Assembly: GCA_016213435.1 (NCBI GenBank)
Contig: JACRAL010000098.1
Coordinates: forward strand, 141 to 64,140
Direction: 5' to 3'
Source of the DNA: Bacteroidota bacterium
GTDB lineage: Bacteria > Bacteroidota > Bacteroidia > Palsa-948
DNA length: 64,000 nt
Position numbers and translations under genes: made by a program. The first letter of the stretch is position 1. The number at the start of each line of letters is the position of its first letter. The notes below the pieces were generated by a model that saw nothing but the letters and a program-made list of their open reading frames with translations, had not been told where the DNA came from and did no database searches. Positions 322 through 60,472 of the stretch are shown piece by piece.

Positions 322-642
322 ATGACAGACAAAAATATTTACACACTTCACGCCAACATTTGCAAGGCACTAGGACATCCGACACGCATAGAAATCATTG
401 ACACTTTGCAAAACAAAGAAATGAACTTTGGTAAACTGCTTGAAAAAATTGGCGGAGCAAAATCAAACCTTTCACAGCACCTTTCCTCAATGACAAATAA
501 AGGAATTTTAATTCAGCGAAAAGAAGGATTGAATAATTATTATAAACTCTCCTCAAAAAAAGTATCCACCGCCTGCCGAATTATGCGGGAAGTATTGATT
601 GACAACTTAAAAAAACAACACGAAATCCTTAAACACATTTAA
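322..642 (+). CDS. ArsR/SmtB-family metalloregulatory HTH transcriptional repressor
   Basis: 106 aa. Winged-HTH region LGHPTRIEIIDTL...NFGKLLEKIGGAKSNLSQHLSSMTNKGIL is typical of ArsR/SmtB. Upstream palindromic operator. Confidence 0.7.
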   Translation: MTDKNIYTLHANICKALGHPTRIEIIDTLQNKEMNFGKLLEKIGGAKSNLSQHLSSMTNKGILIQRKEGLNNYYKLSSKKVSTACRIMREVLIDNLKKQHEILKHI

Positions 643-653
643 AAAACGACACA

Positions 654-1181
654 ATGGAACAACTCATTCACTCCTTATTATTAGCACTGCACAACATCGC
701 ATTAGTCGGATGTGCAGCAGCGCCATTTTACAACCGAAATCTTGTTATTAGCAGAAGCCAGTATGGTGCAAAACTTCTTTACGAATTAGATAAAGTAGTG
801 GAGGACACCTTACAGGGGAACGCACCTTACTGTATTTTTTTCATCGCCACATTATTCATCACAGGTTTCGGAATGCCGTTGAATCATTATTTCTTTCACG
901 GAGCATTTAAAGAAATATCCACCGTTGCCATGATAGCAGGAATCATAAAACTCCTTTTCATTTTCGGTATGGTTGTTATTATGACAATCATATTTCTGAA
1001 AATCAATCCCGAACTTAAAAAGATATTCAGCGGATTTACCAAAAATGTATTACCCGATGCAACTATTGAAGCTAAATTTTTCAAACTACGCAAGCGAAGA
1101 AAATATCTCTGTGAAATATGCCTTGTATTTGTAATTATTATTTTGGTGTCAAGTGCGTTTTTAGGTTTTAATATGAATTAA
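654..1181 (+). CDS. hypothetical polytopic membrane protein
   Basis: 175 aa with several hydrophobic segments, immediately downstream of arsR-like gene. Confidence 0.4.
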   Translation: MEQLIHSLLLALHNIALVGCAAAPFYNRNLVISRSQYGAKLLYELDKVVEDTLQGNAPYCIFFIATLFITGFGMPLNHYFFHGAFKEISTVAMIAGIIKLLFIFGMVVIMTIIFLKINPELKKIFSGFTKNVLPDATIEAKFFKLRKRRKYLCEICLVFVIIILVSSAFLGFNMN

Positions 1182-1196
1182 AAAGCAATTCAAAAA

Positions 1197-1646
1197 ATGA
1201 AAAATAAAAAAATCTCATTCGTCATTCTGTTTGCAATAACCATCATTGCTTTTGCATTTACCAAATTCCCTTTTCAAAATGGGAATGACCCTTGGGCAGA
1301 AAAGCAGTTGATGACCCCTGCCGACCTTGCAAAAATCCTGAACGATTCAAAAAGCAAACAGCCAATCATATTGAGCATAGGTTTTGGCGGTGGAATAAAA
1401 GGTTCTATTGAAATGGGAGCAGCCAAAGAAAAGGAAGGAATTAAAAATCTGAAAAAAGAATTAACAAAACTTCCTAAAGACGCAGACATTGTTATTTATT
1501 GCGGTTGCTGTCCGTTTGAACACTGCCCTAACATTCGACCTGCTTTTCAATTACTCAATGAAATGAAATTTACAAATCACAAACTTTTGAATCTTTCTCA
1601 TAATTTAAAAACTGATTGGATTGATAAAGGTTATCCCGATAAGTAA
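1197..1646 (+). CDS. hypothetical secreted protein, possible rhodanese-like domain (IVIYCGCCPFEHC)
   Basis: N-terminal signal/TM segment. Cys-rich IVIYCG motif resembles a rhodanese active-site loop. Weak. Confidence 0.3.
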   Translation: MKNKKISFVILFAITIIAFAFTKFPFQNGNDPWAEKQLMTPADLAKILNDSKSKQPIILSIGFGGGIKGSIEMGAAKEKEGIKNLKKELTKLPKDADIVIYCGCCPFEHCPNIRPAFQLLNEMKFTNHKLLNLSHNLKTDWIDKGYPDK

Positions 1647-2354
1647 ATGATTGCCGAAATAAATATATCAACATTTGACCAATACACATTGGAATATGAT
1701 AATTGGTTTGAACAACACGCAAGCCAATATCAATCTGAAATTCTTGCATTGAAAAAAGCTATTCCGAAAAATAAAATTGGAATTGAAATAGGAGTTGGCA
1801 CGGGTAGATTTGCACAACCATTAAACATAAAATTCGGAGTAGAATCATCTCAAAATATGCTCCAATTTTCAGAACAAAGGGGAATAAATGTTTTAAAAGC
1901 TGTTGCCGAAAAATTGCCGATAGAAAATGAAACCTATGATTTTGCTTTGATGGTAACAACCGTTTGTTTTCTCAATAACATTCCAAAAGCATTTTCAGAA
2001 GTTCACCGTATTTTAAAATCAAAAGGAGAAATCATTATCGGATTAATTGATAAGTACAGCGAATTGGGAAATAAATACGAGCAAGAAAAATCTACTAACA
2101 AATTTTACAAAGGCGCACACTTTCATTCCACCGAAGAAATAACATTGCTTCTTAAAAAAGCGGGTTTCAAAAATTTTCAATACTGGCAAACATTAACAAA
2201 TACCCAAAGTGAAAAAAATATCCCTTGCGCTTGCTGTACTCCATCATACTTCCCAATGTTGCCAATAGAAAATAAGGAACGACCTAAGTCGGGCTTTGGA
2301 GAAGGCAGTTTTGTGGTGATAAAAGCACAAAAGAAAAACCTTAAAAATAAATGA
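1647..2354 (+). CDS. class I SAM-dependent methyltransferase (Methyltransf_11-like)
   Basis: Motif I IEIGVGTGRF, acidic motif II, C-terminal CACC cysteine pair. Location next to ArsR could suggest a metalloid methyltransferase, but this is not proven. Confidence 0.55.
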   Translation: MIAEINISTFDQYTLEYDNWFEQHASQYQSEILALKKAIPKNKIGIEIGVGTGRFAQPLNIKFGVESSQNMLQFSEQRGINVLKAVAEKLPIENETYDFALMVTTVCFLNNIPKAFSEVHRILKSKGEIIIGLIDKYSELGNKYEQEKSTNKFYKGAHFHSTEEITLLLKKAGFKNFQYWQTLTNTQSEKNIPCACCTPSYFPMLPIENKERPKSGFGEGSFVVIKAQKKNLKNK

Positions 2355-27716: not shown

Positions 27717-28133
27717 ATGAATTACAGCAAAGAAGCAATATTGCAGTTATCAGCACTTATTAAAGGAAATGATGAATCACGTCTTTGGCTGCTGAAAAAC
27801 AATTACCCCGAATTGGTTTTATTGCATTACTCCATTGAAGGACGTGAAGATGCATTGAAAGAGTTAATGAAGAAAAAATATGTAGAGGTTACAGCATTGG
27901 CACAATCTATTCGGGGAAATGCAAGGGCATTTAACTGGTTGGCGGAAAACAAAAAATTTATTTTTGCGGCAACCATTCAGGTTATGTATAAAAAAAAAGA
28001 GGCAGGAATATGGTTGAAAAAAAACAAGCTTGATCACTATCTAATACTTGCTGAAACAATCCGAAAGCGGTTAGAAGAAGATGAAAAAGGAGATATTTTT
28101 TCGATTTTTAACAAGATGTTAAAAAGAAAATGA
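27717..28133 (+). CDS. hypothetical protein
   Basis: 138-aa ORF. Confidence 0.4.
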   Translation: MNYSKEAILQLSALIKGNDESRLWLLKNNYPELVLLHYSIEGREDALKELMKKKYVEVTALAQSIRGNARAFNWLAENKKFIFAATIQVMYKKKEAGIWLKKNKLDHYLILAETIRKRLEEDEKGDIFSIFNKMLKRK

Positions 28134-28156
28134 CAAATAAACCAAAATCAACACCT

Positions 28157-28180
28157 GTCCTCTCCCTTTAGGGAAGGGAC
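28157..28180. repeat. REP-like hairpin TCCCTT-TAGGG-AAGGGA immediately upstream of cinA start
   Basis: 6-bp stem, core CCCTTTAGGGA shared with the element inside rarA. Confidence 0.4.
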
Positions 28181-28187
28181 ACCTCTA

Positions 28188-29519
28188 ATGTTCGCAGAAA
28201 TAATTTCCATAGGTGATGAGATTCTTATCGGGCAGATCACAAACTCCAATGCACAATGGATGGCTCAGCAGCTGAATCTTATCGGCATCTCGGTAAAGCA
28301 AATCAGCACTGTTGGCGACAATCGCGAAGATGTTATTAGAATATTTTCAGAAGCACTGCAGCGTGCAGATATCATTCTTATTACAGGAGGACTTGGACCC
28401 ACAAATGACGACATAACTAAACAATGTCTCTGTGATTTTTTTAAGACAAAACTTGTTTTCAACGAGCAGTGTTTTGAAGATGTAAAAAAAATGTTTTCTG
28501 ATCGAAATCTTGGAATGCCTGCCATCAACAAAGGTCAAGCAGAACTTCCGGAAAACTGTATTCCTATCAGAAATAAAAATGGAACTGCTCCGGGGATGTG
28601 GTTTGAAGCCCCACCCCAACCCTCCCCGTTAGGGAGGGAGAAAAATCAACAGCAAGTCCTCCCTAATGGGGAGGATATAGGAGGGGCTCTTTTTGTTTCC
28701 CTCCCGGGAGTTCCCTATGAAATGAAAGCAATGATGTCGGATTTTGTGATCCCTGAACTTCAAAAAAGATTTCAAAGAAATTTCATTGTTCACAAAACGG
28801 TTCATACGCAGGGAATCGGAGAATCAGCTCTTGCAGAAAAAATAAAAGAATGGGAGGACTCTCTTGCCAAACATGAAATCAAGCTAGCTTATCTTCCTTC
28901 ACCCGGGCAGGTAAAACTTCGGGTATCTCTAAACGGGAATGATCAGAAAAAAATTACTGACTTGGTCGATGAAAAAATCAACGAGTTAAGGCAATTAATC
29001 CCCGAATACATTTTTGCTACAGAAGAATTCGGAAAAGAGCCGGAGACGCTGGAAAAAGTTATAGGAGAAATTCTCCGAAAGAAAAAGAAAACACTTGCTG
29101 TCGCAGAAAGTTGTACGGGTGGTTATATTGCGCATCTCATTACAAGTATTGCCGGAAGCTCGGATTATTTCAATGGCGGAATTATCGCTTATGCAAATGA
29201 AATGAAAATTAATGTGTTGAAGGTGGATGTAAAAATTTTGGAAGAGAAAGGAGCTGTTTGTAAGGACGTGGCCGAGCAAATGTCAGACGGTGTTAGAAAA
29301 AGACTGAAGGCAGATTTTGGAATTTCAACTACAGGTATTGCAGGACCAACCGGTGGAAGCGCTGAAAAACCGGTTGGTACAGTTTGGATTTCGGTTACGT
29401 CTGACACTGAAATTATATCCGAAAAATTTAATTTCGGCAATAACAGGGAAAGAAATATTCGAAGAGCTTCTTTATCTGCCTTAAATATGTTGAGAACCCT
29501 GTTAGAAAAACATTCCTAA
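28188..29519 (+). CDS. cinA: competence/damage-inducible protein CinA (with about 24-aa in-frame insertion encoded by GC-rich hairpins)
   Basis: N-terminus AEIISIGDEILIGQITNSNAQW, GTAPGMWFE ... LPGVPYEMK motifs, C-terminal CinA domain. 443 aa versus about 415 typical. Confidence 0.85.
   Translation: MFAEIISIGDEILIGQITNSNAQWMAQQLNLIGISVKQISTVGDNREDVIRIFSEALQRADIILITGGLGPTNDDITKQCLCDFFKTKLVFNEQCFEDVKKMFSDRNLGMPAINKGQAELPENCIPIRNKNGTAPGMWFEAPPQPSPLGREKNQQQVLPNGEDIGGALFVSLPGVPYEMKAMMSDFVIPELQKRFQRNFIVHKTVHTQGIGESALAEKIKEWEDSLAKHEIKLAYLPSPGQVKLRVSLNGNDQKKITDLVDEKINELRQLIPEYIFATEEFGKEPETLEKVIGEILRKKKKTLAVAESCTGGYIAHLITSIAGSSDYFNGGIIAYANEMKINVLKVDVKILEEKGAVCKDVAEQMSDGVRKRLKADFGISTTGIAGPTGGSAEKPVGTVWISVTSDTEIISEKFNFGNNRERNIRRASLSALNMLRTLLEKHS
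28611..28711. repeat. cluster of three GC-rich REP-like hairpins embedded in-frame in cinA
   Basis: Hairpins CCCTCC(C)-CGTTA-GGGAGGG, CCTCCC-TAAT-GGGGAGG and palindrome CTCCCGGGAG. They encode PPQPSPLGREKNQQQVLPNGEDIGGALFVS between the conserved WFE and LPGVP motifs. Confidence 0.6.
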
Positions 29520-29552
29520 TTTTAGAAAAAATTGTAACTTTGAACAATAAAG

Positions 29553-29568
29553 TCTCGTTAGGACGAGA
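29553..29568. repeat. REP-like hairpin TCTCGT-TAGG-ACGAGA abutting the start codon of ORF 29571
   Basis: Perfect 6-bp stem 3 nt upstream of the ATG. Confidence 0.4.
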
Positions 29569-29570
29569 GT

Positions 29571-30020
29571 ATGAATACGACAAGATTTCTTCTTTCTTGG
29601 ATTCTGAGTGCATTGGTAATGTTTTCCCTTTCGTACTTATGGCATGGCGTTTTTTTGAATGATCTGCAACGCCTGTCCTATCCTAAAGGAATCTTCCTCA
29701 CCGGTTGCATCATCACTTATCTGATACTTGGGTTTCTTGTTACAAAAATTTATTTAATGAACTATCCGAAATCCATTGCGCGAAAACCGCTTGTCAGAGG
29801 ATTGATTGCAGGCTCGGTGCTTGGGGTATGCACGTATATTGTTTCACTTGTAGTTGGGGTTTCTTTTAATTATACACTTACTCTTGGCAACATCCTTTTT
29901 GACCTTTTATGGCAAACCGTAGAGCAAACCTTCGGAGGAGTTGTAGTTGCATTTGTCTATATCTGGATTTACGAAGGAAATCCTGTTGAGGTGATCGGCC
30001 GAAAAATGTTTGGTGATTAG
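29571..30020 (+). CDS. hypothetical membrane protein (4 TM)
   Basis: 149 aa, hydrophobic helices. Confidence 0.4.
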   Translation: MNTTRFLLSWILSALVMFSLSYLWHGVFLNDLQRLSYPKGIFLTGCIITYLILGFLVTKIYLMNYPKSIARKPLVRGLIAGSVLGVCTYIVSLVVGVSFNYTLTLGNILFDLLWQTVEQTFGGVVVAFVYIWIYEGNPVEVIGRKMFGD

Positions 30021-31339
30021 TATCCGTATTTCTCCTTCCAGTTCTTCTTCAAAAATTTCCGAAATCTTTTCTCTGCATCATTATCTCCCGGTTCATACCA
30101 TTTTGTGCCGCTTAATTCATCCGGAAGAAATTCTGCATTTATAAAATTTCCTTCATAGCTATGAGCATATTGATACTCTTTTCCATAGTTAAGATCTTTC
30201 ATCAGTTGAGTGGGAGCGTTGCGGATAGAAAGCGGAACGGATAGATCGCCAGTTTTTTTTACCGCTTCCTGCGCAGTTCCGATTGCTTTGTAAGAAGCAT
30301 TGCTTTTAGGAGAACAGGCAAGGTAAACAACCGCTTGTGAAAGAATAATTCTTGCTTCCGGCAGGCCAATTGCATTTACTGCCTGAAAACAATTATTAGC
30401 AAGAACAAGCGCCATCGGATTTGCATTGCCCACATCTTCCGAAGCGAGAATGAGCAATCTTCTGGCTATGAAAAGAGGATCTTCACCGCCTTCAATCATT
30501 CTTGCTAAGTAGTAAACTCCCGCATTTGGATCACTGCCACGTATTGATTTGATGAATGCGGAAATAATATCGTAATGCTGCTCGCCCGTTTTATCATACA
30601 AAGCCATTTTCTGCTGAACAACATTCAAAAGATTTTCATCAGTGATTACGATATCTTGCACCCCGCCCTGAAGGGAGCTATTGTCATCACTTTCCCCCTT
30701 TAGGGACGGGGTAATCGAACTCACATATAACTCCAATGCGTTATATAACTTCCTTACATCACCGCCTGAAAGACGAAGCAACGCATCACTTTCTTTCACA
30801 ATTATTTTTTTCTTTTTTAATATCTCATCTGCATGAATTGCATAATCAATGAGTGAGATCAAATCCTGTTTTTCCAGATGATTCAACAAATAAACCTGGC
30901 AGCGAGAAAGCAAAGCGGAAATTACTTCGAACGAAGGATTTTCTGTTGTGGCTCCGATCAGCGTAATGGTTCCTTTCTCCACTGCTCCAAGCAAAGAATC
31001 TTGTTGTGCCTTGCTGAAACGATGAATTTCATCTATGAAAAGTATAGGATAATTTGTTCCGAAAAATGAATCAGCGGATGCTTTGTCAATTACCTCGCGT
31101 ATGTCTTTGACTCCTGAATTGATTGCGCTCAGCTGGTAATAGGGGCGTTTTAGTTGAGTGGCAATGATCCTTGCCAGTGTTGTTTTTCCTACGCCCGGAG
31201 GTCCCCATAAGATCATGGAAGGAATAGTTCCGGCTTCAATGGCTCTTCTGAGAATAGCGCCTTCGCCCACAAGGTGTTTCTGACCGATAAATTCATTCAG
31301 CGTTTTAGGACGAAGCCGCTCTGCTAAAGGAATACTCAT
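30017..31339 (-). CDS. rarA: replication-associated recombination protein A (AAA ATPase RarA/MgsA)
   Basis: Walker A GPPGVGKTTLARIIA, Walker B LFIDEIHRF, and C-terminal MgsA helical/tetramerisation region with YDxxGEQHYDIISAFIKSIRGSD. Confidence 0.9.
   Translation of the reverse strand: MSIPLAERLRPKTLNEFIGQKHLVGEGAILRRAIEAGTIPSMILWGPPGVGKTTLARIIATQLKRPYYQLSAINSGVKDIREVIDKASADSFFGTNYPILFIDEIHRFSKAQQDSLLGAVEKGTITLIGATTENPSFEVISALLSRCQVYLLNHLEKQDLISLIDYAIHADEILKKKKIIVKESDALLRLSGGDVRKLYNALELYVSSITPSLKGESDDNSSLQGGVQDIVITDENLLNVVQQKMALYDKTGEQHYDIISAFIKSIRGSDPNAGVYYLARMIEGGEDPLFIARRLLILASEDVGNANPMALVLANNCFQAVNAIGLPEARIILSQAVVYLACSPKSNASYKAIGTAQEAVKKTGDLSVPLSIRNAPTQLMKDLNYGKEYQYAHSYEGNFINAEFLPDELSGTKWYEPGDNDAEKRFRKFLKKNWKEKYGY
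30664..30711. repeat. GC-rich REP-like element (CCCTGAAGGG ... CCCCCTTTAGGGACGGGG) in-frame in the rarA linker
   Basis: Encodes KGESDDNSSLQGG in a linker about 11 aa longer than in E. coli RarA (sequence recalled from memory). Confidence 0.45.
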
Positions 31340-31422
31340 GGATGCAAATATAGAAATAGAAAACTGTTCTTTTCCAGAAAGAACAAAAGGAAAGAGTAAT
31401 TTTTTACTTTTGCATCCCTTAC

Positions 31423-31497
31423 GGTGGTTGTAGCTCAGTTGGTTAGAGCACTAGATTGTGGTTCTAGGGGTCGCGGGTTCAAGTCCCGTCATCCACC
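31423..31497 (+). tRNA. tRNA-His (anticodon GTG) with genomically encoded G-1; no encoded CCA
   Basis: Cloverleaf read by hand: G-1, acceptor GTGGTTG/CATCCAC, D-arm GCTCAGTTGGTTAGAGC, anticodon stem CTAGA/TCTAG with loop TTGTGGT, T-arm GCGGGTTCAAGTCCCGT, discriminator C. Confidence 0.8.
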
Positions 31498-47535: not shown

Positions 47536-49257
47536 CTAAAAATCGTAATAAACATTGTTCAGAGAAGTGCGGATTCCAAAGTAAATGAAGTTGGTTTGAG
47601 AGTTTTCAATTGTGCTTGTGCTGCTTCGGTTTGAAATTCCAACCAAAATATTAAAGTTTGTTGCAGGATTTATAAGATAGCCGATATGAAAATCGAAAAT
47701 CCGTAGCGTTGTTTTTATGCCTTGTCCCATTTCATTGTGGGTAGAATTTACTCCATATAAAGCATTGTTATCTGAACTGAAAATGTTATTGCCGTAATTT
47801 CTTCCGAGAGAATCTTTGCCGATGATGGCATAATTCACTTTTACTTCAGTAAAGAGATTTCCGATGCGATAATTCAGGAAAGCAATTGCTTCTTTGAAAT
47901 TTGCTCCGAGCGGATGTGCCAGTGGCTGGTTGTAATGCGTGTAGCTCTGAGCAGATTTTTTTGAAGCATACGAATAAGGACGAACTTGGTTGTACTCGAC
48001 TTGCAAGTGCAGATTTCGTAATCCGAACAAGTCGAAATATTTTGCTCCTGCCTGAAACCCTTGTTTATTATGCAATGAATTTCTTGTAAAATCCTTTGAG
48101 ATGTCATCCAGCATGTATTGTCCGTAGAGGGAAATTGAATTAGTGATCTTGCATTTCAATGTCCATCCGAGCAACACGTTGTTTGTTCCCGCCAATCCTT
48201 CGGAGAGTGCAGCATTATAAATAAGCGGACTGAAATAATTAAAGTTCAAATCTTGCTTGTTCATCGAATCGCTTGCCTGCCAGACAATCCCTTGAAAAAA
48301 ACCTAATTGAATTCTCTTGTTGATATTCCAGCTCAGGAATTGAAAATTTCCTGCTTTCTTTTGGAATAATCTTTCTGTGCCGGGAGGAGTCTTTACTCCT
48401 CCATCCGTCAAATTCATGAACACAGTATAGAGATTTGTGTACTGAAATTTTCCAAAAGAAGAAGCGACACGCAGAAAAGGATAATTGAACGCATTGTCGC
48501 TCAGCAAAAGCGAGCGGTAGCCATCTCCAATAAAATGTTTTCCGATACCTGCTTGAAAATTAAAATACTTGCTTGGGGAATAGGAAACGTATCCTGAAGC
48601 CATCGCAAAGTCATAGCCGTTGGTTTTAAATCTTTTCCATCTGCCTTGGCCCGGCACAACCAAGGAAGCATTATTGAAGTCCTGTATGTAATTAACAAAG
48701 GTTGCTTGATTTTCAAGAAAAGAACTTTCAAAAGAAAAGTTTTTTCCTATATCTCCGCGCAGCAAAATTCCACGCATGTTCTTGTAAAATGATTTTGAAG
48801 AATCCGCACGATCTCTTCCATATTCAAAGTTAAAAAGGGGGTCAATGGTGAGGTGGAATTTGTCGGTGGTATCGTTGACGATGAAAAGATTTTCTTTTCT
48901 AAATTTAGTTCCAATTTTTTTCCAAAAGGTGTTTTGGTATATTTTTTCTGAATGCCAAGTGTTAGAAATAATTGGTTTGAAACAGGATGTAGAATCAACA
49001 TTATAATAAGCGACACCGTATCCTCCCCATGCACTTCCCCATGAATCAATTGCGTCACTTTTCCATTTGATTGTATCTGCATGTGAGTTAATTAGAGATC
49101 GATTTTTTTCTCTTCCCAAGCTCCATTCCCTATTCAAGGGCAAATTTTTTTGCTGAGAAAAGAGAAAGATTGGAAAAAAAATAAATAGTCCCGTTAGGGA
49201 CATAATATTTATAGAAAAAATGTCCGCAGATGTATTTGAGTTCTGTAGGAACGACAT
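47536..49257 (-). CDS. outer-membrane beta-barrel protein, paralog of 44599-46197 (true start probably the Met near 49203, MSLTGLFIFF)
   Basis: See paralog. A REP hairpin overlaps the probable start codon. Confidence 0.4.
   Translation of the reverse strand: MSFLQNSNTSADIFSINIMSLTGLFIFFPIFLFSQQKNLPLNREWSLGREKNRSLINSHADTIKWKSDAIDSWGSAWGGYGVAYYNVDSTSCFKPIISNTWHSEKIYQNTFWKKIGTKFRKENLFIVNDTTDKFHLTIDPLFNFEYGRDRADSSKSFYKNMRGILLRGDIGKNFSFESSFLENQATFVNYIQDFNNASLVVPGQGRWKRFKTNGYDFAMASGYVSYSPSKYFNFQAGIGKHFIGDGYRSLLLSDNAFNYPFLRVASSFGKFQYTNLYTVFMNLTDGGVKTPPGTERLFQKKAGNFQFLSWNINKRIQLGFFQGIVWQASDSMNKQDLNFNYFSPLIYNAALSEGLAGTNNVLLGWTLKCKITNSISLYGQYMLDDISKDFTRNSLHNKQGFQAGAKYFDLFGLRNLHLQVEYNQVRPYSYASKKSAQSYTHYNQPLAHPLGANFKEAIAFLNYRIGNLFTEVKVNYAIIGKDSLGRNYGNNIFSSDNNALYGVNSTHNEMGQGIKTTLRIFDFHIGYLINPATNFNILVGISNRSSTSTIENSQTNFIYFGIRTSLNNVYYDF
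49188..49201. repeat. REP element GTCCC-GTTA-GGGAC 3' of the RAYT gene
   Basis: Perfect 5-bp stem. Inverted orientation relative to the REPs at 49761-49824. Confidence 0.6.
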
Positions 49258-49258
49258 A

Positions 49259-49720
49259 TTATTGTATTTCTTTTAAAACATACCGTTCATCGTACTCAAC
49301 ATTAAATTTCTGTAACAATTTCGTGTATTTTTCTTTGAATGTCCTTTTCTGATGATGATGCTCCTGATTATTGATGTATTTAACAACCCTGTCAATATGA
49401 GAGTGAGAATAAGAAAATGCACCATAACCTTCCTGCCATTTGAATTTGCCTTTCACAAATCCTTTTTTATTAATCCAGCCGGAAGAATTTCCCTTAATGT
49501 CTTGCAGTAAATCCGGAATTAATTGGTGTGGCTTGTAGCCAATAAAAATATGAATGTGATCAGCCACGCCATTGATTGCAATCAATTTGTGTTTATTGTT
49601 TTGCACTATGCCTGTAATATATTTATACAACTCATCCTTCCATGAATTATTAATCAGGGAAATTCTATCTTGAACGGAAAATACAAATTGAATGTATAAT
49701 TGGGTGTATGTATTTGCCAT
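49259..49720 (-). CDS. IS200/IS605-family Y1 (HUH) transposase, REP-associated tyrosine transposase (RAYT)-like
   Basis: 153 aa. HUH motif DHIHIFI and GYGAFSYS...YINNQEHHH C-terminal Tyr helix, characteristic of Y1 transposases. Flanked by REP hairpins. Confidence 0.75.
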   Translation of the reverse strand: MANTYTQLYIQFVFSVQDRISLINNSWKDELYKYITGIVQNNKHKLIAINGVADHIHIFIGYKPHQLIPDLLQDIKGNSSGWINKKGFVKGKFKWQEGYGAFSYSHSHIDRVVKYINNQEHHHQKRTFKEKYTKLLQKFNVEYDERYVLKEIQ

Positions 49721-49736
49721 GTTTTGAATATTGTGT

Positions 49737-49824
49737 CCCTATGGGGCTATAAACATTTTGTCCCTAACGGGATTTGCATGGTTGGTTTCTTTTTCTATAA
49801 ATATCCTGTCCCTCACGGGACAGG
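49737..49824. repeat. three REP-like hairpins 5' of the RAYT gene (CCC-TAT-GGGG; TCCC-TAAC-GGGA; CCTGTCCC-TCAC-GGGACAGG), the last abutting the fcl stop codon
   Basis: Read directly. All share the GTCCC...GGGAC core. Confidence 0.6.
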
Positions 49825-55513: not shown

Positions 55514-55622
55514 TTTATTTGTCCTTAATTTGAGCAATCTTCCTCAGTAAAACACTCACTGCTTTTCTACCTTTTGTTCCCAGTGATATTGAATATTTAT
55601 TCACGTAAAGATGGATGTGCTG
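55514..55622. repeat. authentic 3' end of the mqnD-like gene; partner of 54612-54720
   Basis: See 54612-54720. Confidence 0.8.
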
Positions 55623-56372
55623 TTTGATCACTTCATCATCCATTTCCTGTGCGTTTTTTTTTATAAATGCTTTGCTTGAGTTGGGATTAGCAAAAGCAAA
55701 CTCCACGCTTCTGCGGATAATGCGTTCGACTTTTTTTTGAATTTCCTTTGGAAAACTTTTGTTGATGGCAATTCCTCCGAGGGGAATGGGTGATTTTGTT
55801 TTTTTCTCCCACCAGTTTCCAAGATCAATTACTTTCTTCAATCCCTTTTGTTTATAAGTGAAACGACTTTCATGAATGATCACTCCCAGATCAAACTTTC
55901 CTTTCAGCACCGCGTCTTCAATTTCAGAAAAAAGAACTTCGATTTTGTTTTTCAGTTTGGGATAAGCAAGTGAGAAGAGGAGATTGGCGGTGGTGTTTTT
56001 TCCGGGGATGGCAACACGTAAGTTAGAAGTTAGAAGTTTAAGGTTTAAAGTTGAAACAACCAAAGGTCCAACACCAAAGCCAAGTGCTGAACCTGAATCA
56101 AGTAAAGAATATTTATCTTGAACTTGTGAGAAAGCAAAAAAACTAATTTTTGTAATATCAAGTTGCTTTTTTGTCGCCTTCCCTTCGGGAAGGTCGGGAT
56201 GGGCTGCCCTTCTGTTCAATGCTTCTACATCTTCAATTATCGCTTTGAATTTTAATCCTTCGGTGTCTACTTTTCCATGAAGCATTGCATGGAAGATGAA
56301 GCAATCATTGGGGCAGGGAGAAAATCCGAGGGTTAATGGAAGATGGCTGATGGTTGATGGAATGCGTTTCAT
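55515..56372 (-). CDS. mqnD: MqnA/MqnD-family menaquinone (futalosine pathway) biosynthesis protein, most like 1,4-dihydroxy-6-naphthoate synthase MqnD
   Basis: N-terminus LTLGFSPCPNDCFIFHAMLHGKV...EDVEALN and GPLVV ... IPGKNTTANLL fit the MqnD periplasmic-binding-like fold. Ortholog comparison is from memory. Confidence 0.6.
   Translation of the reverse strand: MKRIPSTISHLPLTLGFSPCPNDCFIFHAMLHGKVDTEGLKFKAIIEDVEALNRRAAHPDLPEGKATKKQLDITKISFFAFSQVQDKYSLLDSGSALGFGVGPLVVSTLNLKLLTSNLRVAIPGKNTTANLLFSLAYPKLKNKIEVLFSEIEDAVLKGKFDLGVIIHESRFTYKQKGLKKVIDLGNWWEKKTKSPIPLGGIAINKSFPKEIQKKVERIIRRSVEFAFANPNSSKAFIKKNAQEMDDEVIKQHIHLYVNKYSISLGTKGRKAVSVLLRKIAQIKDK
56177..56193. repeat. perfect GC-rich palindrome CCTTCCC-TTC-GGGAAGG in-frame in mqnD-like gene (encodes DLPEGKA)
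   Basis: Read directly. 7-bp stem in an otherwise AT-rich gene. Confidence 0.5.
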
Positions 56373-58495: not shown

Positions 58496-60472
58496 TTATT
58501 CGGATTGGATACTTGGTTTTTGTTGTTTATCTAACTCTTCATACACTGAATTCTGACTTCTGAACTCAGGTACAATTTCTTTCATTCTTTTTACAATAGC
58601 AGTGCTGTCTTGATTTTGAAGAAGGGAAATCAGCGCACCCACTTTTTCTGAAACTTCCTCGTGTCCATATTCCCTCACCTTGCCAACCATAATCTGAGGA
58701 TTGTGAGTGGGAAGCGTATTTTCTTTTGTGGCAAGAAGTTCTTCGAAAAGTTTTTCCCCCGGACGCAATCCGGTGTAAACTATCTGTATGTCTTTCCCGA
58801 GTGTGAGTCCTGCAAGCTGGATCATCTTTTTGGCGAGGTCAGCAATCTTGACCGACTGTCCCATGTCGAACACAAAAATTTCTCCGCCTTTTCCCATCGC
58901 GCCTGCTTCTAAAACCAATTGGCATGCTTCGGGAATGGTCATAAAAAAACGTGTGATATCCGGATGAGTAACGGATATTGGTCCGCCTCTTTCAATTTGG
59001 TGTCTGAAAAGTTGAATCACCGAACCGTTAGATCCGAGCACATTTCCAAAGCGGGTGGTGATGAATTTGCAGCCCCCTCTAACTCCCCCTTCAGGGGAGG
59101 ATTTATTTTCGCCCTCCCTGAAGGGGAGGGAAGGGGTGGGGCTGAGCGATTGCACATACATCTCCGCAATTCTTTTTGAAGCGCCCATTACGTTGGTGGG
59201 ATTAACGGCTTTATCAGTAGACACCATCACGAATTTTTCTACTCCGTGTTTTACCGCGAGATCGGCCATGATCTTGGTGCCGAGCACATTGGTTTGAATG
59301 GCTTCAAGCGGATGGTGTTCCATCATCGGCACATGCTTGTATGCCGCTGCATGATACACAACTTGGGGAGAATATTTACTGAAAATACTTTCCATCCTTT
59401 CTTTATTTCTCACATCGGCAATCACAATTTCAAAAGAGCGCAGGTGGAAAATATTTTTCAGTTCCATCTCCATTTCATAGAGAGGAGATTCGGCAGTGTC
59501 GATCAGAACTATTTTTTTTGAATTGAATTTTGAAAGCTGTCTCACGATTTCGCTTCCGATAGAACCCGCAGCCCCGGTTACAAGAATCACTTTGTCGCGT
59601 GTCTGCCGTTTGATGTTTTCCATATCAAGTTTGATCGGATTGCGTTCGAGAAGATCTTCAATGCGAACTTTTTTTATCTGCTTGAAACTAAGCTCTCCGT
59701 TTATCCAGCTGCTCACCGGAGGCACATTCAGGATTTTGGTATTGTATTTTAAACATATTTCCACAATTTCTTCTTTTCGTTTCGCGGGAATATTTTGAAC
59801 AGAAATGATCATGTGTGCTACGTTTCCATCTCGTAGAAGTTCTTCCAGTTTGTTAAATCCGTAAATAGTAATTCCTTCCAGTTTGCTTTCCCATTTTTTT
59901 TCGTTGTCGTCAATAAAGGCAAGCACTTTGTATTTCATTCCTGCATCGCGGTCAAGTGTTCGCTTGGTGATGATGCCTGATTCGCCCGATCCGAAAATGA
60001 TGACGCTGGTTTTTGTGCGACTTGGATTTTTCCATTCGAGATAAATGGATTTAAAAATGAGCCGCAGGCTGATCATCAGGAAAGTGGTCGTCATGTATTC
60101 AATGACGAGGATGGAGAAGGGGATAATAAATGTATCTGTAATAAAGTAATATTTTATGATATTGGCAATAGCAAAAAAGATACTGCCAAGTGTGGTGACG
60201 ATAAAAATCCGTTGTGCATCTCTCGAACTGGTATAGCGAACAATGCCTTTATGTGTTTTTGAAATAAAAAAACTCAAAGCACGTACTCCGATTACAAAAG
60301 GGAAAATAAGAGGAAATGTGTCTAATTCCACCTGTGGAATTGCTGCGAAGTTGAAGCGGAGCAAATAGGCGATGATAAGAGCAAAAAAACAAATGAACAG
60401 ATCGATCAGGAAAATTATCCAGCGCGGAGCGGTGCGTTCAAAGAGAAGCATAATTTTTAAATTTGTGTTCAA
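58496..60472 (-). CDS. membrane-anchored polysaccharide biosynthesis protein CapD/PglF/WbpM-like (UDP-sugar 4,6-dehydratase)
   Basis: N-terminal 4 TM. Rossmann ILVTGAAGSIGSEIVRQL, GASKRIAEMYV and RFGNVLGSNGSV motifs. Confidence 0.8.
   Translation of the reverse strand: MNTNLKIMLLFERTAPRWIIFLIDLFICFFALIIAYLLRFNFAAIPQVELDTFPLIFPFVIGVRALSFFISKTHKGIVRYTSSRDAQRIFIVTTLGSIFFAIANIIKYYFITDTFIIPFSILVIEYMTTTFLMISLRLIFKSIYLEWKNPSRTKTSVIIFGSGESGIITKRTLDRDAGMKYKVLAFIDDNEKKWESKLEGITIYGFNKLEELLRDGNVAHMIISVQNIPAKRKEEIVEICLKYNTKILNVPPVSSWINGELSFKQIKKVRIEDLLERNPIKLDMENIKRQTRDKVILVTGAAGSIGSEIVRQLSKFNSKKIVLIDTAESPLYEMEMELKNIFHLRSFEIVIADVRNKERMESIFSKYSPQVVYHAAAYKHVPMMEHHPLEAIQTNVLGTKIMADLAVKHGVEKFVMVSTDKAVNPTNVMGASKRIAEMYVQSLSPTPSLPFREGENKSSPEGGVRGGCKFITTRFGNVLGSNGSVIQLFRHQIERGGPISVTHPDITRFFMTIPEACQLVLEAGAMGKGGEIFVFDMGQSVKIADLAKKMIQLAGLTLGKDIQIVYTGLRPGEKLFEELLATKENTLPTHNPQIMVGKVREYGHEEVSEKVGALISLLQNQDSTAIVKRMKEIVPEFRSQNSVYEELDKQQKPSIQSE
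59083..59130. repeat. two GC-rich REP-like hairpins (CTCCCC-CTTCA-GGGGAG; CCCTCCC-TGAAG-GGGAGGG) in-frame in the capD-like gene
   Basis: They encode about 20 extra residues (PTPSLPFREGENKSSPEGGVRGG) between the conserved YVQSL and TTRFGNV motifs. Confidence 0.55.

Follow-up and report, generated by a model that had tools for sequence, protein, structure and literature searches.

The DNA analysed here is a window of 64,000 nucleotides (the whole stretch, positions 141 to 64,140 of contig JACRAL010000098.1, assembly GCA_016213435.1) from the metagenome-assembled genome (MAG) of a Bacteroidota bacterium. Its cinA gene, encoding nicotinamide-nucleotide amidohydrolase (competence-damage protein), harbors a GC-rich palindromic element of 82 nt that is inserted in-frame between two conserved protein motifs. 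The open reading frame (ORF) is intact, the MoCF_biosynth, CinA_KH and CinA domains of Pfam are all full-length, and the product is 100% identical to a protein of a Bacteroidetes MAG (P0001). In the window CinA, 27 residues APPQPSPLGREKNQQQVLPNGEDIGGA, originating from the palindrome, separate GTAPGMWFE from LFVSLPGVPYEMK. An alignment of 120 homologues gives 4-5 residues between GMWFE and (I/L)FVS as the canonical state. In the closest relatives (P0002-P0005; 422 aa, 81-82% identity) the sequence reads ESNPNGIIFVS, with six residues at this loop and no insert. The insert also corresponds to an alignment gap against the solved CinA structures 6mr3 and 4ct8.

Contig L001, which encodes P0005, was used for a comparison of filled and empty sites. 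It shares with the window the gene order 138-aa gene, cinA, 149-aa gene and rarA, and global DNA alignment against window positions 27717-31400 yields 81.5% identity over 3516 positions. There are only three internal gaps of at least 3 nt, at 28134-28186 (53 nt), 28610-28672 (63 nt) and 30663-30710 (48 nt). Each of the three segments contains GC-rich hairpins, and the lengths of both genic gaps are divisible by three. In L001 the upstream gene stops 1 nt before cinA, that is, without the 53-nt intergenic segment, and RarA has 424 aa compared with 440 in the window. The cinA segment is an insertion. The closest relative carries one weak copy of the element in 21 kb.

A previous inspection of the letters alone (the sequence-only reading) had reported a palindromic insert in-frame between two conserved motifs of CinA, and both the gap in L001 and the homologue alignment bear this out. 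The position it gave, 28611-28711, has to be corrected as listed in Table 1. It also counted three stem-loops. The first two are real; the third, CTCCCGGGAG (28701-28710), is coding sequence for the conserved motif SLPGVP, and relatives that lack the insert have it as well. A fourth hairpin, which it noticed just upstream of the start codon, does exist and lies within the 53-nt intergenic insertion.

Table 1. Positions of the element, its relatives and associated features (numbering of the window unless a locus is named)
Feature	Position	Strand	Basis or remark
Host gene cinA	28188..29519	+	ORF intact, 443 aa
Full-length element (REPIN-like doublet), in-frame in cinA	28607..28688	+	inverted repeat, fold, gap against L001, family identity
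G-quadruplex (G4) motif at cinA foot	28609-28627	-	template strand of host gene
Half element, intergenic, just upstream of cinA start codon	28134..28186	+	53 nt, hairpin GTCC-TCTCCC-TTTA-GGGAAGGGAC
In-frame insertion in rarA/mgsA (ORF 30017..31339, -)	30663..30710	-	48 nt; hairpins GTCCC-TAAA-GGGGG and CTCCC-TTCA-GGGCG
IS200-like Y1 transposase gene (Y1_Tnp)	49259..49720	-	NCBIfam, motifs; gene and hairpins span 49187-49824
Half element in mqnD-like gene (55515..56372, -)	56166..56206	-	foot AGCCCATCCCGA, hairpin CCTTCCC-GAA-GGGAAGG, A-rich spacer; in-frame
Second full-length element, in-frame in capD/pglF-like polysaccharide biosynthesis gene (58496..60472, -)	59071..59143	-	encodes SPTPSLPFREGENKSSPEGGVRGG
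G4 motif at capD/pglF-like foot	59123-59141	+	template strand of host gene
Prevotella MetH	L014		in-frame insert (translation)
Saprospiraceae FAD-dependent oxidoreductase	L045, ORF 584-2129		tandem cluster of units in one loop, in-frame
Bacteroidales RecF	L046		in-frame inserts at two sites
Bacteroidales MurI	L106		in-frame insert
Mucilaginibacter Lhr helicase	L118		in-frame insert
Emticicia helicase	L120		several in-frame inserts; peptide APPQPSPIGREE, close to cinA peptide

The cinA element is an imperfect palindrome, whose 31-nt arms are 81% complementary and enclose 20 nt. Its parts follow one another as foot AGCCCCACCCC, hairpin 1 (CCCTCCC-CGTTA-GGGAGGG, 28620-28638), spacer, hairpin 2 (TCCTCCC-TAATG-GGGAGGA, 28657-28675) and end GGAGGGGCT. 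Because hairpin 2 is the inverse of hairpin 1, the unit represents a doublet of inverted hairpins resembling repetitive extragenic palindromes (REPs). Its GC content is 57%, compared with 38.8% for the whole window. Folded as single-stranded DNA, it forms one long hairpin of -23.8 kcal/mol; shuffled versions average -11.6 (z = -6.2), and none of 200 was as good. The core CCCKTTAGGGA occurs five times, with 0.03 occurrences expected. Only one of the six reading frames of the element is free of stops, and cinA reads exactly that one.

The position of the insert within the protein was assessed on an AlphaFold2 model built on 83 homologues, with mean predicted local distance difference test (pLDDT) score of 89.4. 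Residues 145-164 are the sole segment with pLDDT below 50, and beta-strands 136-140 and 168-172 flank them. Since this low-scoring segment sits between the two strands, the model indicates that the element replaced a beta-hairpin turn of 4-6 residues in the N-terminal MoCF-type domain with a predicted disordered loop. The added loop would amount to 21-27 residues and is predicted to be floppy.

Two full and three partial copies were found in the window, four of the five inside genes; a scan of the window for GC islands revealed no additional ones. Over 71 aligned nt, the full copy in the capD/pglF-like gene and the cinA copy share 87% identity, and none of 5000 shuffles scored as well. We rely on such direct pairwise shuffle tests, as E-values from nhmmer are circular for this pair (the profile was made from the same two copies). 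Judged against PglF (5bju), the second copy adds about 20 residues directly before the RFGNVLGS motif. Both full copies are sense-oriented, the C-rich foot coming first, while their reading frames are offset by 1 nt, and the capD/pglF-like copy has four open frames. As the two copies are read in different frames, the element has no fixed ORF of its own. The resulting peptides (PSPLGRE and PSLPFREGE) are nevertheless alike, because runs of C and G yield Pro and Gly whatever the frame.

The partial copies are of unequal quality. The mqnD-like half element, which is among the few GC islands of the window, aligns with the left half of the cinA element (none of 2000 shuffles as good); it adds about 10 aa (HPDLP...KATKK), matched by 10-residue gaps in MqnD of T. 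thermophilus (2czl) and in A. fulgidus 1zbm. The intergenic segment resembles the spacer and hairpin 2 of the cinA element, with AAAATCAACA common to it and the cinA spacer, and its local alignment was equalled or beaten by 3 of 2000 shuffles. The rarA insertion adds about 16 aa within TPSLKGESDDNSSLQGGVQ relative to L001, or 13 residues relative to E. coli MgsA (3pvs). Its fold has z = -2.65 and its similarity to the full copies is weak (reached by 5-12 of 2000 shuffles), so that by sequence it is probably a decayed related element. Directly upstream of rarA, adjoining its 5´ end, there is a tRNA gene (31424-31497; Rfam RF00005, 65 bits). A search of Rfam at gathering threshold returned tRNA only and no match for the element.

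Members of the family occur in other genomes. The cinA copy and a copy from Mucilaginibacter (L008) share 86% identity end to end, from AGCCCC to GGGGCT, and none of 5000 shuffles was as good. Mucilaginibacter copies have both ends and the full layout; the ends common to them and to the window copies represent terminal inverted repeats of an element of defined length. The same cinA site is occupied by the family in other species, clearly in L005 and partly in L004. We further scanned 185,579 species genomes for the pattern CCCACCC-N2-4-CCCTCCCC-N3-5-GGGAGGG and obtained at least 120 loci. Among the matches listed, about 36 belong to Bacteroidota (Prevotella, Mucilaginibacter, Runella, Emticicia, Saprospiraceae, Flavobacterium, Muribaculaceae, Cytophagales). 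In low-GC genomes among them, about 9 of 43 copies lie within long ORFs and about 34 are intergenic. Genic copies elsewhere (examples in Table 1) are of mixed orientation, five being sense and three antisense among the listed matches.

Comparison of these copies tells which parts of the element are constrained. Loop sequences vary freely (GGTA, AAAG, TTCA, TGAA, ACAA and others). The conserved features are the C-rich foot, which reads AGCCCCACCCC(AA) in every clear copy, and the CCCTCCCC/GGGGAGGG stems. The order of parts, CCCCACCCC-NN-CCC(C)TCCCC-loop-GGGGAGGG(G), is kept across many phyla: among the matches listed, the foot-plus-hairpin motif is near-invariant in many Sphingomonadaceae and sporadic in Ignavibacteria, Oceanithermus, Planctomycetota and Methylococcales. 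It is also present in more than 120 viral contigs of IMG/VR (L214 onward), mainly between genes. One of these contigs (L215, 14.8 kb, five matches) contains a long hairpin without mismatches and, behind it, a T-run, CCCCACCCTATCCCTCCCC-GAAG-GGGAGGGATAGGGTGGGG-TATTTTTT; the foot paired with a complementary 3´ arm looks, by its sequence, like an intrinsic terminator. The spread across phyla is an observation and not a proof of one single family. BLASTN of the element against the plasmids of PLSDB and the phages of INPHARED gave no match, which is a weak negative, the query being short and of low complexity.

The loop of CinA has apparently received inserts repeatedly. In the clade of CinA proteins at about 65-82% identity, its content differs in almost every lineage, and some lineages have no insert at all. 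Inserts of the foot type are found in P0001, P0010, P0032, P0008, P0022, P0059 and others. A second family, with the peptide VGNWQLA...LPTANCQL, occupies the loop in P0006, P0007, P0012, P0016, P0018 and P0034; on the DNA level (L213, cinA at 931-2268) it is an AT-richer, GTAG-tagged REP doublet, GTAGGCAATTGGCAATTGGCA... plus its inverse. All inserts start within about 10 nt past TGGTTTGAA and stop before TTT(T/C)GTTTC. Their patchy distribution on a neighbour-joining tree of CinA leads us to propose repeated gain, replacement, decay and loss. The loop thus appears, from these alignments, to be a hot spot for palindromic inserts of several families. Because the tolerant turn comprises only 12-18 nt, selection alone could produce the shared insertion site; existing hairpins may also act as targets for insertion.

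On the basis of the established insertion, its established membership in a family, several in-frame copies here and in other genomes and its location in a loop, we consider it probable that a small, non-autonomous palindromic repeat left one of its copies in cinA, and that selection filters the copies which land in genes. Such a repeat would be about 73-105 bp long, with ends AGCCCC...GGGGCT, and would combine the C-rich foot CCCCACCCC with a pair of inverted CCCTCCCC-loop-GGGGAGGG hairpins, the whole folding as one hairpin in the manner of a REP doublet forming hairpin (REPIN) or a miniature inverted-repeat transposable element (MITE). We suggest that it reaches, or at one time reached, many places of the genome as a non-autonomous element. 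Copies in genes would persist only when their length is divisible by three, when the frame used is free of stops and when the site is a permissive surface loop. Their runs of C and G would encode disordered peptides rich in Pro, Gly, Ser and Glu, which such loops tolerate. In the case of cinA, the insert would be translated as a floppy loop of 27 residues and would probably be near neutral.

There are several points that weigh against this interpretation. Firstly, no polymorphic site was seen, the argument for mobility is the dispersal of copies, and translation of the cinA insert is a prediction. Secondly, neither a transposase partner nor a parent insertion sequence was found for the element. 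Thirdly, target-site duplications were looked for at the three filled/empty sites and none was seen, the 19% divergence limiting the power of this comparison. Further, the divergence between the two full copies of the window amounts to about 13%, therefore neither is a recent insertion. Finally, recurrence at a single loop of CinA could reflect targeting and not selection alone.

An alternative is that the insert has been kept because it is useful. A hairpin or G-quadruplex on the template strand might slow transcription or translation, the structure might stabilise mRNA, or the new protein loop itself might have a function. The only two canonical G4 motifs in 64 kb (shuffle mean 0.07) coincide with the feet of the full-length elements in cinA and in the capD/pglF-like gene, each on the strand that serves as template for its gene; the motif, GGGGAGGGTTGGGGTGGGG, is complementary to the foot together with the neighbouring stem arm. 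The constant order of foot and hairpin in many phyla and viral contigs, together with the terminator-like structure of L215, agrees with some function, too. The nearest relatives, however, do without the insert, and between lineages the inserts of the CinA loop belong to different families and vary in length and sequence. Disorder is predicted for the peptide, the host genes are functionally unrelated, and genic copies elsewhere stand in both orientations. We therefore regard a useful role as improbable.

According to the sequence-only reading, the hairpins are REPs of a REP-associated tyrosine transposase (RAYT) encoded at 49 kb, and it would follow that this transposase carried them into cinA. 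The 11-mer CCCGTTAGGGA is indeed common to hairpin 1 of the cinA element and to hairpins flanking the Y1 gene, this gene stands in a REPtron-like arrangement, and arms like GTCC(C)...GGGAC occur in the rarA and intergenic inserts. The 11-mer, which had been offered as evidence of the link, nevertheless comprises only stem and loop sequence, and loops are not conserved in the family. The Y1 protein matches the IS200/IS605 TnpA model of NCBIfam (NF033573, 66.3 bits, cut-off 55) and gives no match to the NCBIfam model of RAYTs (REP_Tyr_transpos). Its motifs DHIH and YINNQEHHH fit the signature Y---Q--HH of subclass 1.2, not the YxxxNP of class 2, and subclass 1.2 is given as not REP-associated (Quentin et al. 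2018, PMC6006769).

The flanks of the Y1 gene point in the same direction. They carry hairpins of the form GTCCC-N4-GGGAC, which are found nowhere else in the window. Around 80 metagenomic homologues (L126-L205) we counted 311 GTCCC-N3-4-GGGAC hairpins no more than 300 nt from the gene, with almost none beyond that distance. They are spaced by about 50 nt, with loops mostly GTA or GTTA upstream and the complementary TAC or TAAC downstream; the CCCTCCC-type hairpin is absent from all 80 loci. Genes of subclass 1.2 thus do possess hairpin arrays of their own, in a REPtron-like layout without dispersed copies. The supposed RAYT is IS200-like and is flanked by a different hairpin, never by the element. 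A link between it and the element is not supported, and we find its role as the mover slightly less probable still than a useful role of the insert.

Among the matches listed, a single element-bearing locus of 120 (L114) contains a Y1 gene. This gene, which adjoins four units of the foot type (region 600-1650 of the locus), was considered as a REPtron and dropped, because the hairpins nearest to it are of the type GCGTCC-N-GGACGC, and the same holds for four homologues. The units, 60 nt each with a C-rich-foot hairpin, lie just outside the GCGTCC arrays. Together with L206, L207 and L209-L212, the locus belongs to a second lineage of subclass 1.2 (Bacteroidales, Muribaculaceae), in which arrays of GCGTCC-N3-5-GGACGC reach up to about 1.3 kb downstream.

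That the segment is a lineage-specific low-complexity linker grown in place by slippage or local duplication, or an artefact of assembly, is hardly credible: although the peptide is of low complexity and rich in Pro and Gly, and the source is a MAG, the element has defined ends and matches, at 86-87% identity from end to end, one copy in an unrelated gene and another in the genome of an isolate from a different order, independent assemblies (L005, L004) have the family at the same site, and the ORF is intact on both sides.

Taking the element as a non-autonomous palindromic repeat, we compared it with systems already described. In-frame palindromic insertions are best known in Rickettsia and are usually tied to reductive intracellular genomes. 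The Rickettsia palindromic elements (RPEs; Ogata et al. 2000/2002, summarised in PMC10969869) are about 100-150 bp long and encode a conserved family peptide. Like them, the present element is a dispersed palindrome that resides in-frame in unrelated housekeeping genes at sites compatible with the fold (cinA, capD/pglF, rarA, mqnD-like), with other copies between genes. RPE-like in-frame behavior had been proposed for the cinA insert in the sequence-only reading, and the related in-frame copies in the other three genes and in other Bacteroidota strengthen that proposal. The likeness described here is one of behavior. In contrast to RPEs, the element has 73-82 bp, is GC-rich in an AT-rich free-living Bacteroidota, and has a reading frame that changes from gene to gene, so that it gives no single family peptide; what it encodes is Pro/Gly-rich and predicted to be disordered.

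Intragenic REPs are a second relevant case. Monomers and dimers of REPs tagged by GTAG or CGTC, encoding 20-30 aa and often located in replication and repair genes, were described by Di Nocera et al. (2013, PMC3733652) in Opitutus, Rickettsia, Thauera and Thioalkalivibrio; the supplementary entries named "Bacteroidetes" in that work are Chlorobi. Our element similarly occurs as singlets, dimers and clusters, and repair or replication genes are among its hosts (rarA; RecF and helicases elsewhere). It differs from GTAG/CGTC REPs in having neither tetranucleotide, its foot being AGCCCCACCCC, and in that no RAYT partner was found.

REPINs were described as extragenic, vertically inherited and tied to the single-copy RAYT which they flank (Bertels & Rainey 2011, PMC3116915). 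The element shares with them two inverted REPs and a spacer that fold into one long hairpin, as well as half elements as remnants. Unlike in REPINs, no RAYT was identified, both full copies of the window are intragenic, and the motif is met in many phyla and in viral contigs. The element is thus not a REP or REPIN in the strict sense, as two defining features, the GTAG/CGTC tag and a RAYT flanked by the same REPs, are missing. Bacterial MITEs with in-frame fusions (ERIC, BOX, MITEs of Anabaena; PMC10969869) resemble it in being short and non-autonomous, in having inverted ends and in the possibility of translational fusions; it differs from them in that neither target-site duplication nor parent insertion sequence was detected.

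As to novelty, we found neither an account of this family nor one of palindromes inserted in-frame into genes of true Bacteroidota, in a literature of which our coverage is partial. Searches for intragenic REPs or MITEs of Bacteroidetes gave nothing specific. Full-text searches with the words CCCCTCCCC, GGGGAGGGG, GGGGTGGGG and CCCCACCCC yielded no paper on bacterial repeats. To this extent the claim that such insertion is undescribed stands for true Bacteroidota; in other phyla, in-frame REPs encoding 20-30 aa are known (PMC3733652). Since in-frame insertions of REPs and RPEs are already known in other phyla, what is new here is the family, not the kind.

Taken together, four genes with such inserts lie inside 64 kb of the MAG of a free-living Bacteroidota. 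With them, the frequency at which selfish repeats give rise to protein loops can be studied in a natural system. On the practical side, such inserts inflate protein lengths, break alignments to hidden Markov models and seed spurious ORFs in the annotation of MAGs. One may go further and propose that the foot-plus-hairpin unit is a single, widely spread mobile or phage-borne element, independent of RAYTs, and a regular source of protein loops in Bacteroidota. We hold this extension to be rather doubtful, though likelier than either a useful role of the cinA insert or its delivery by the Y1 transposase. If true, it would represent an RPE-like process acting at large scale in free-living bacteria, with hot spots hit by several families.

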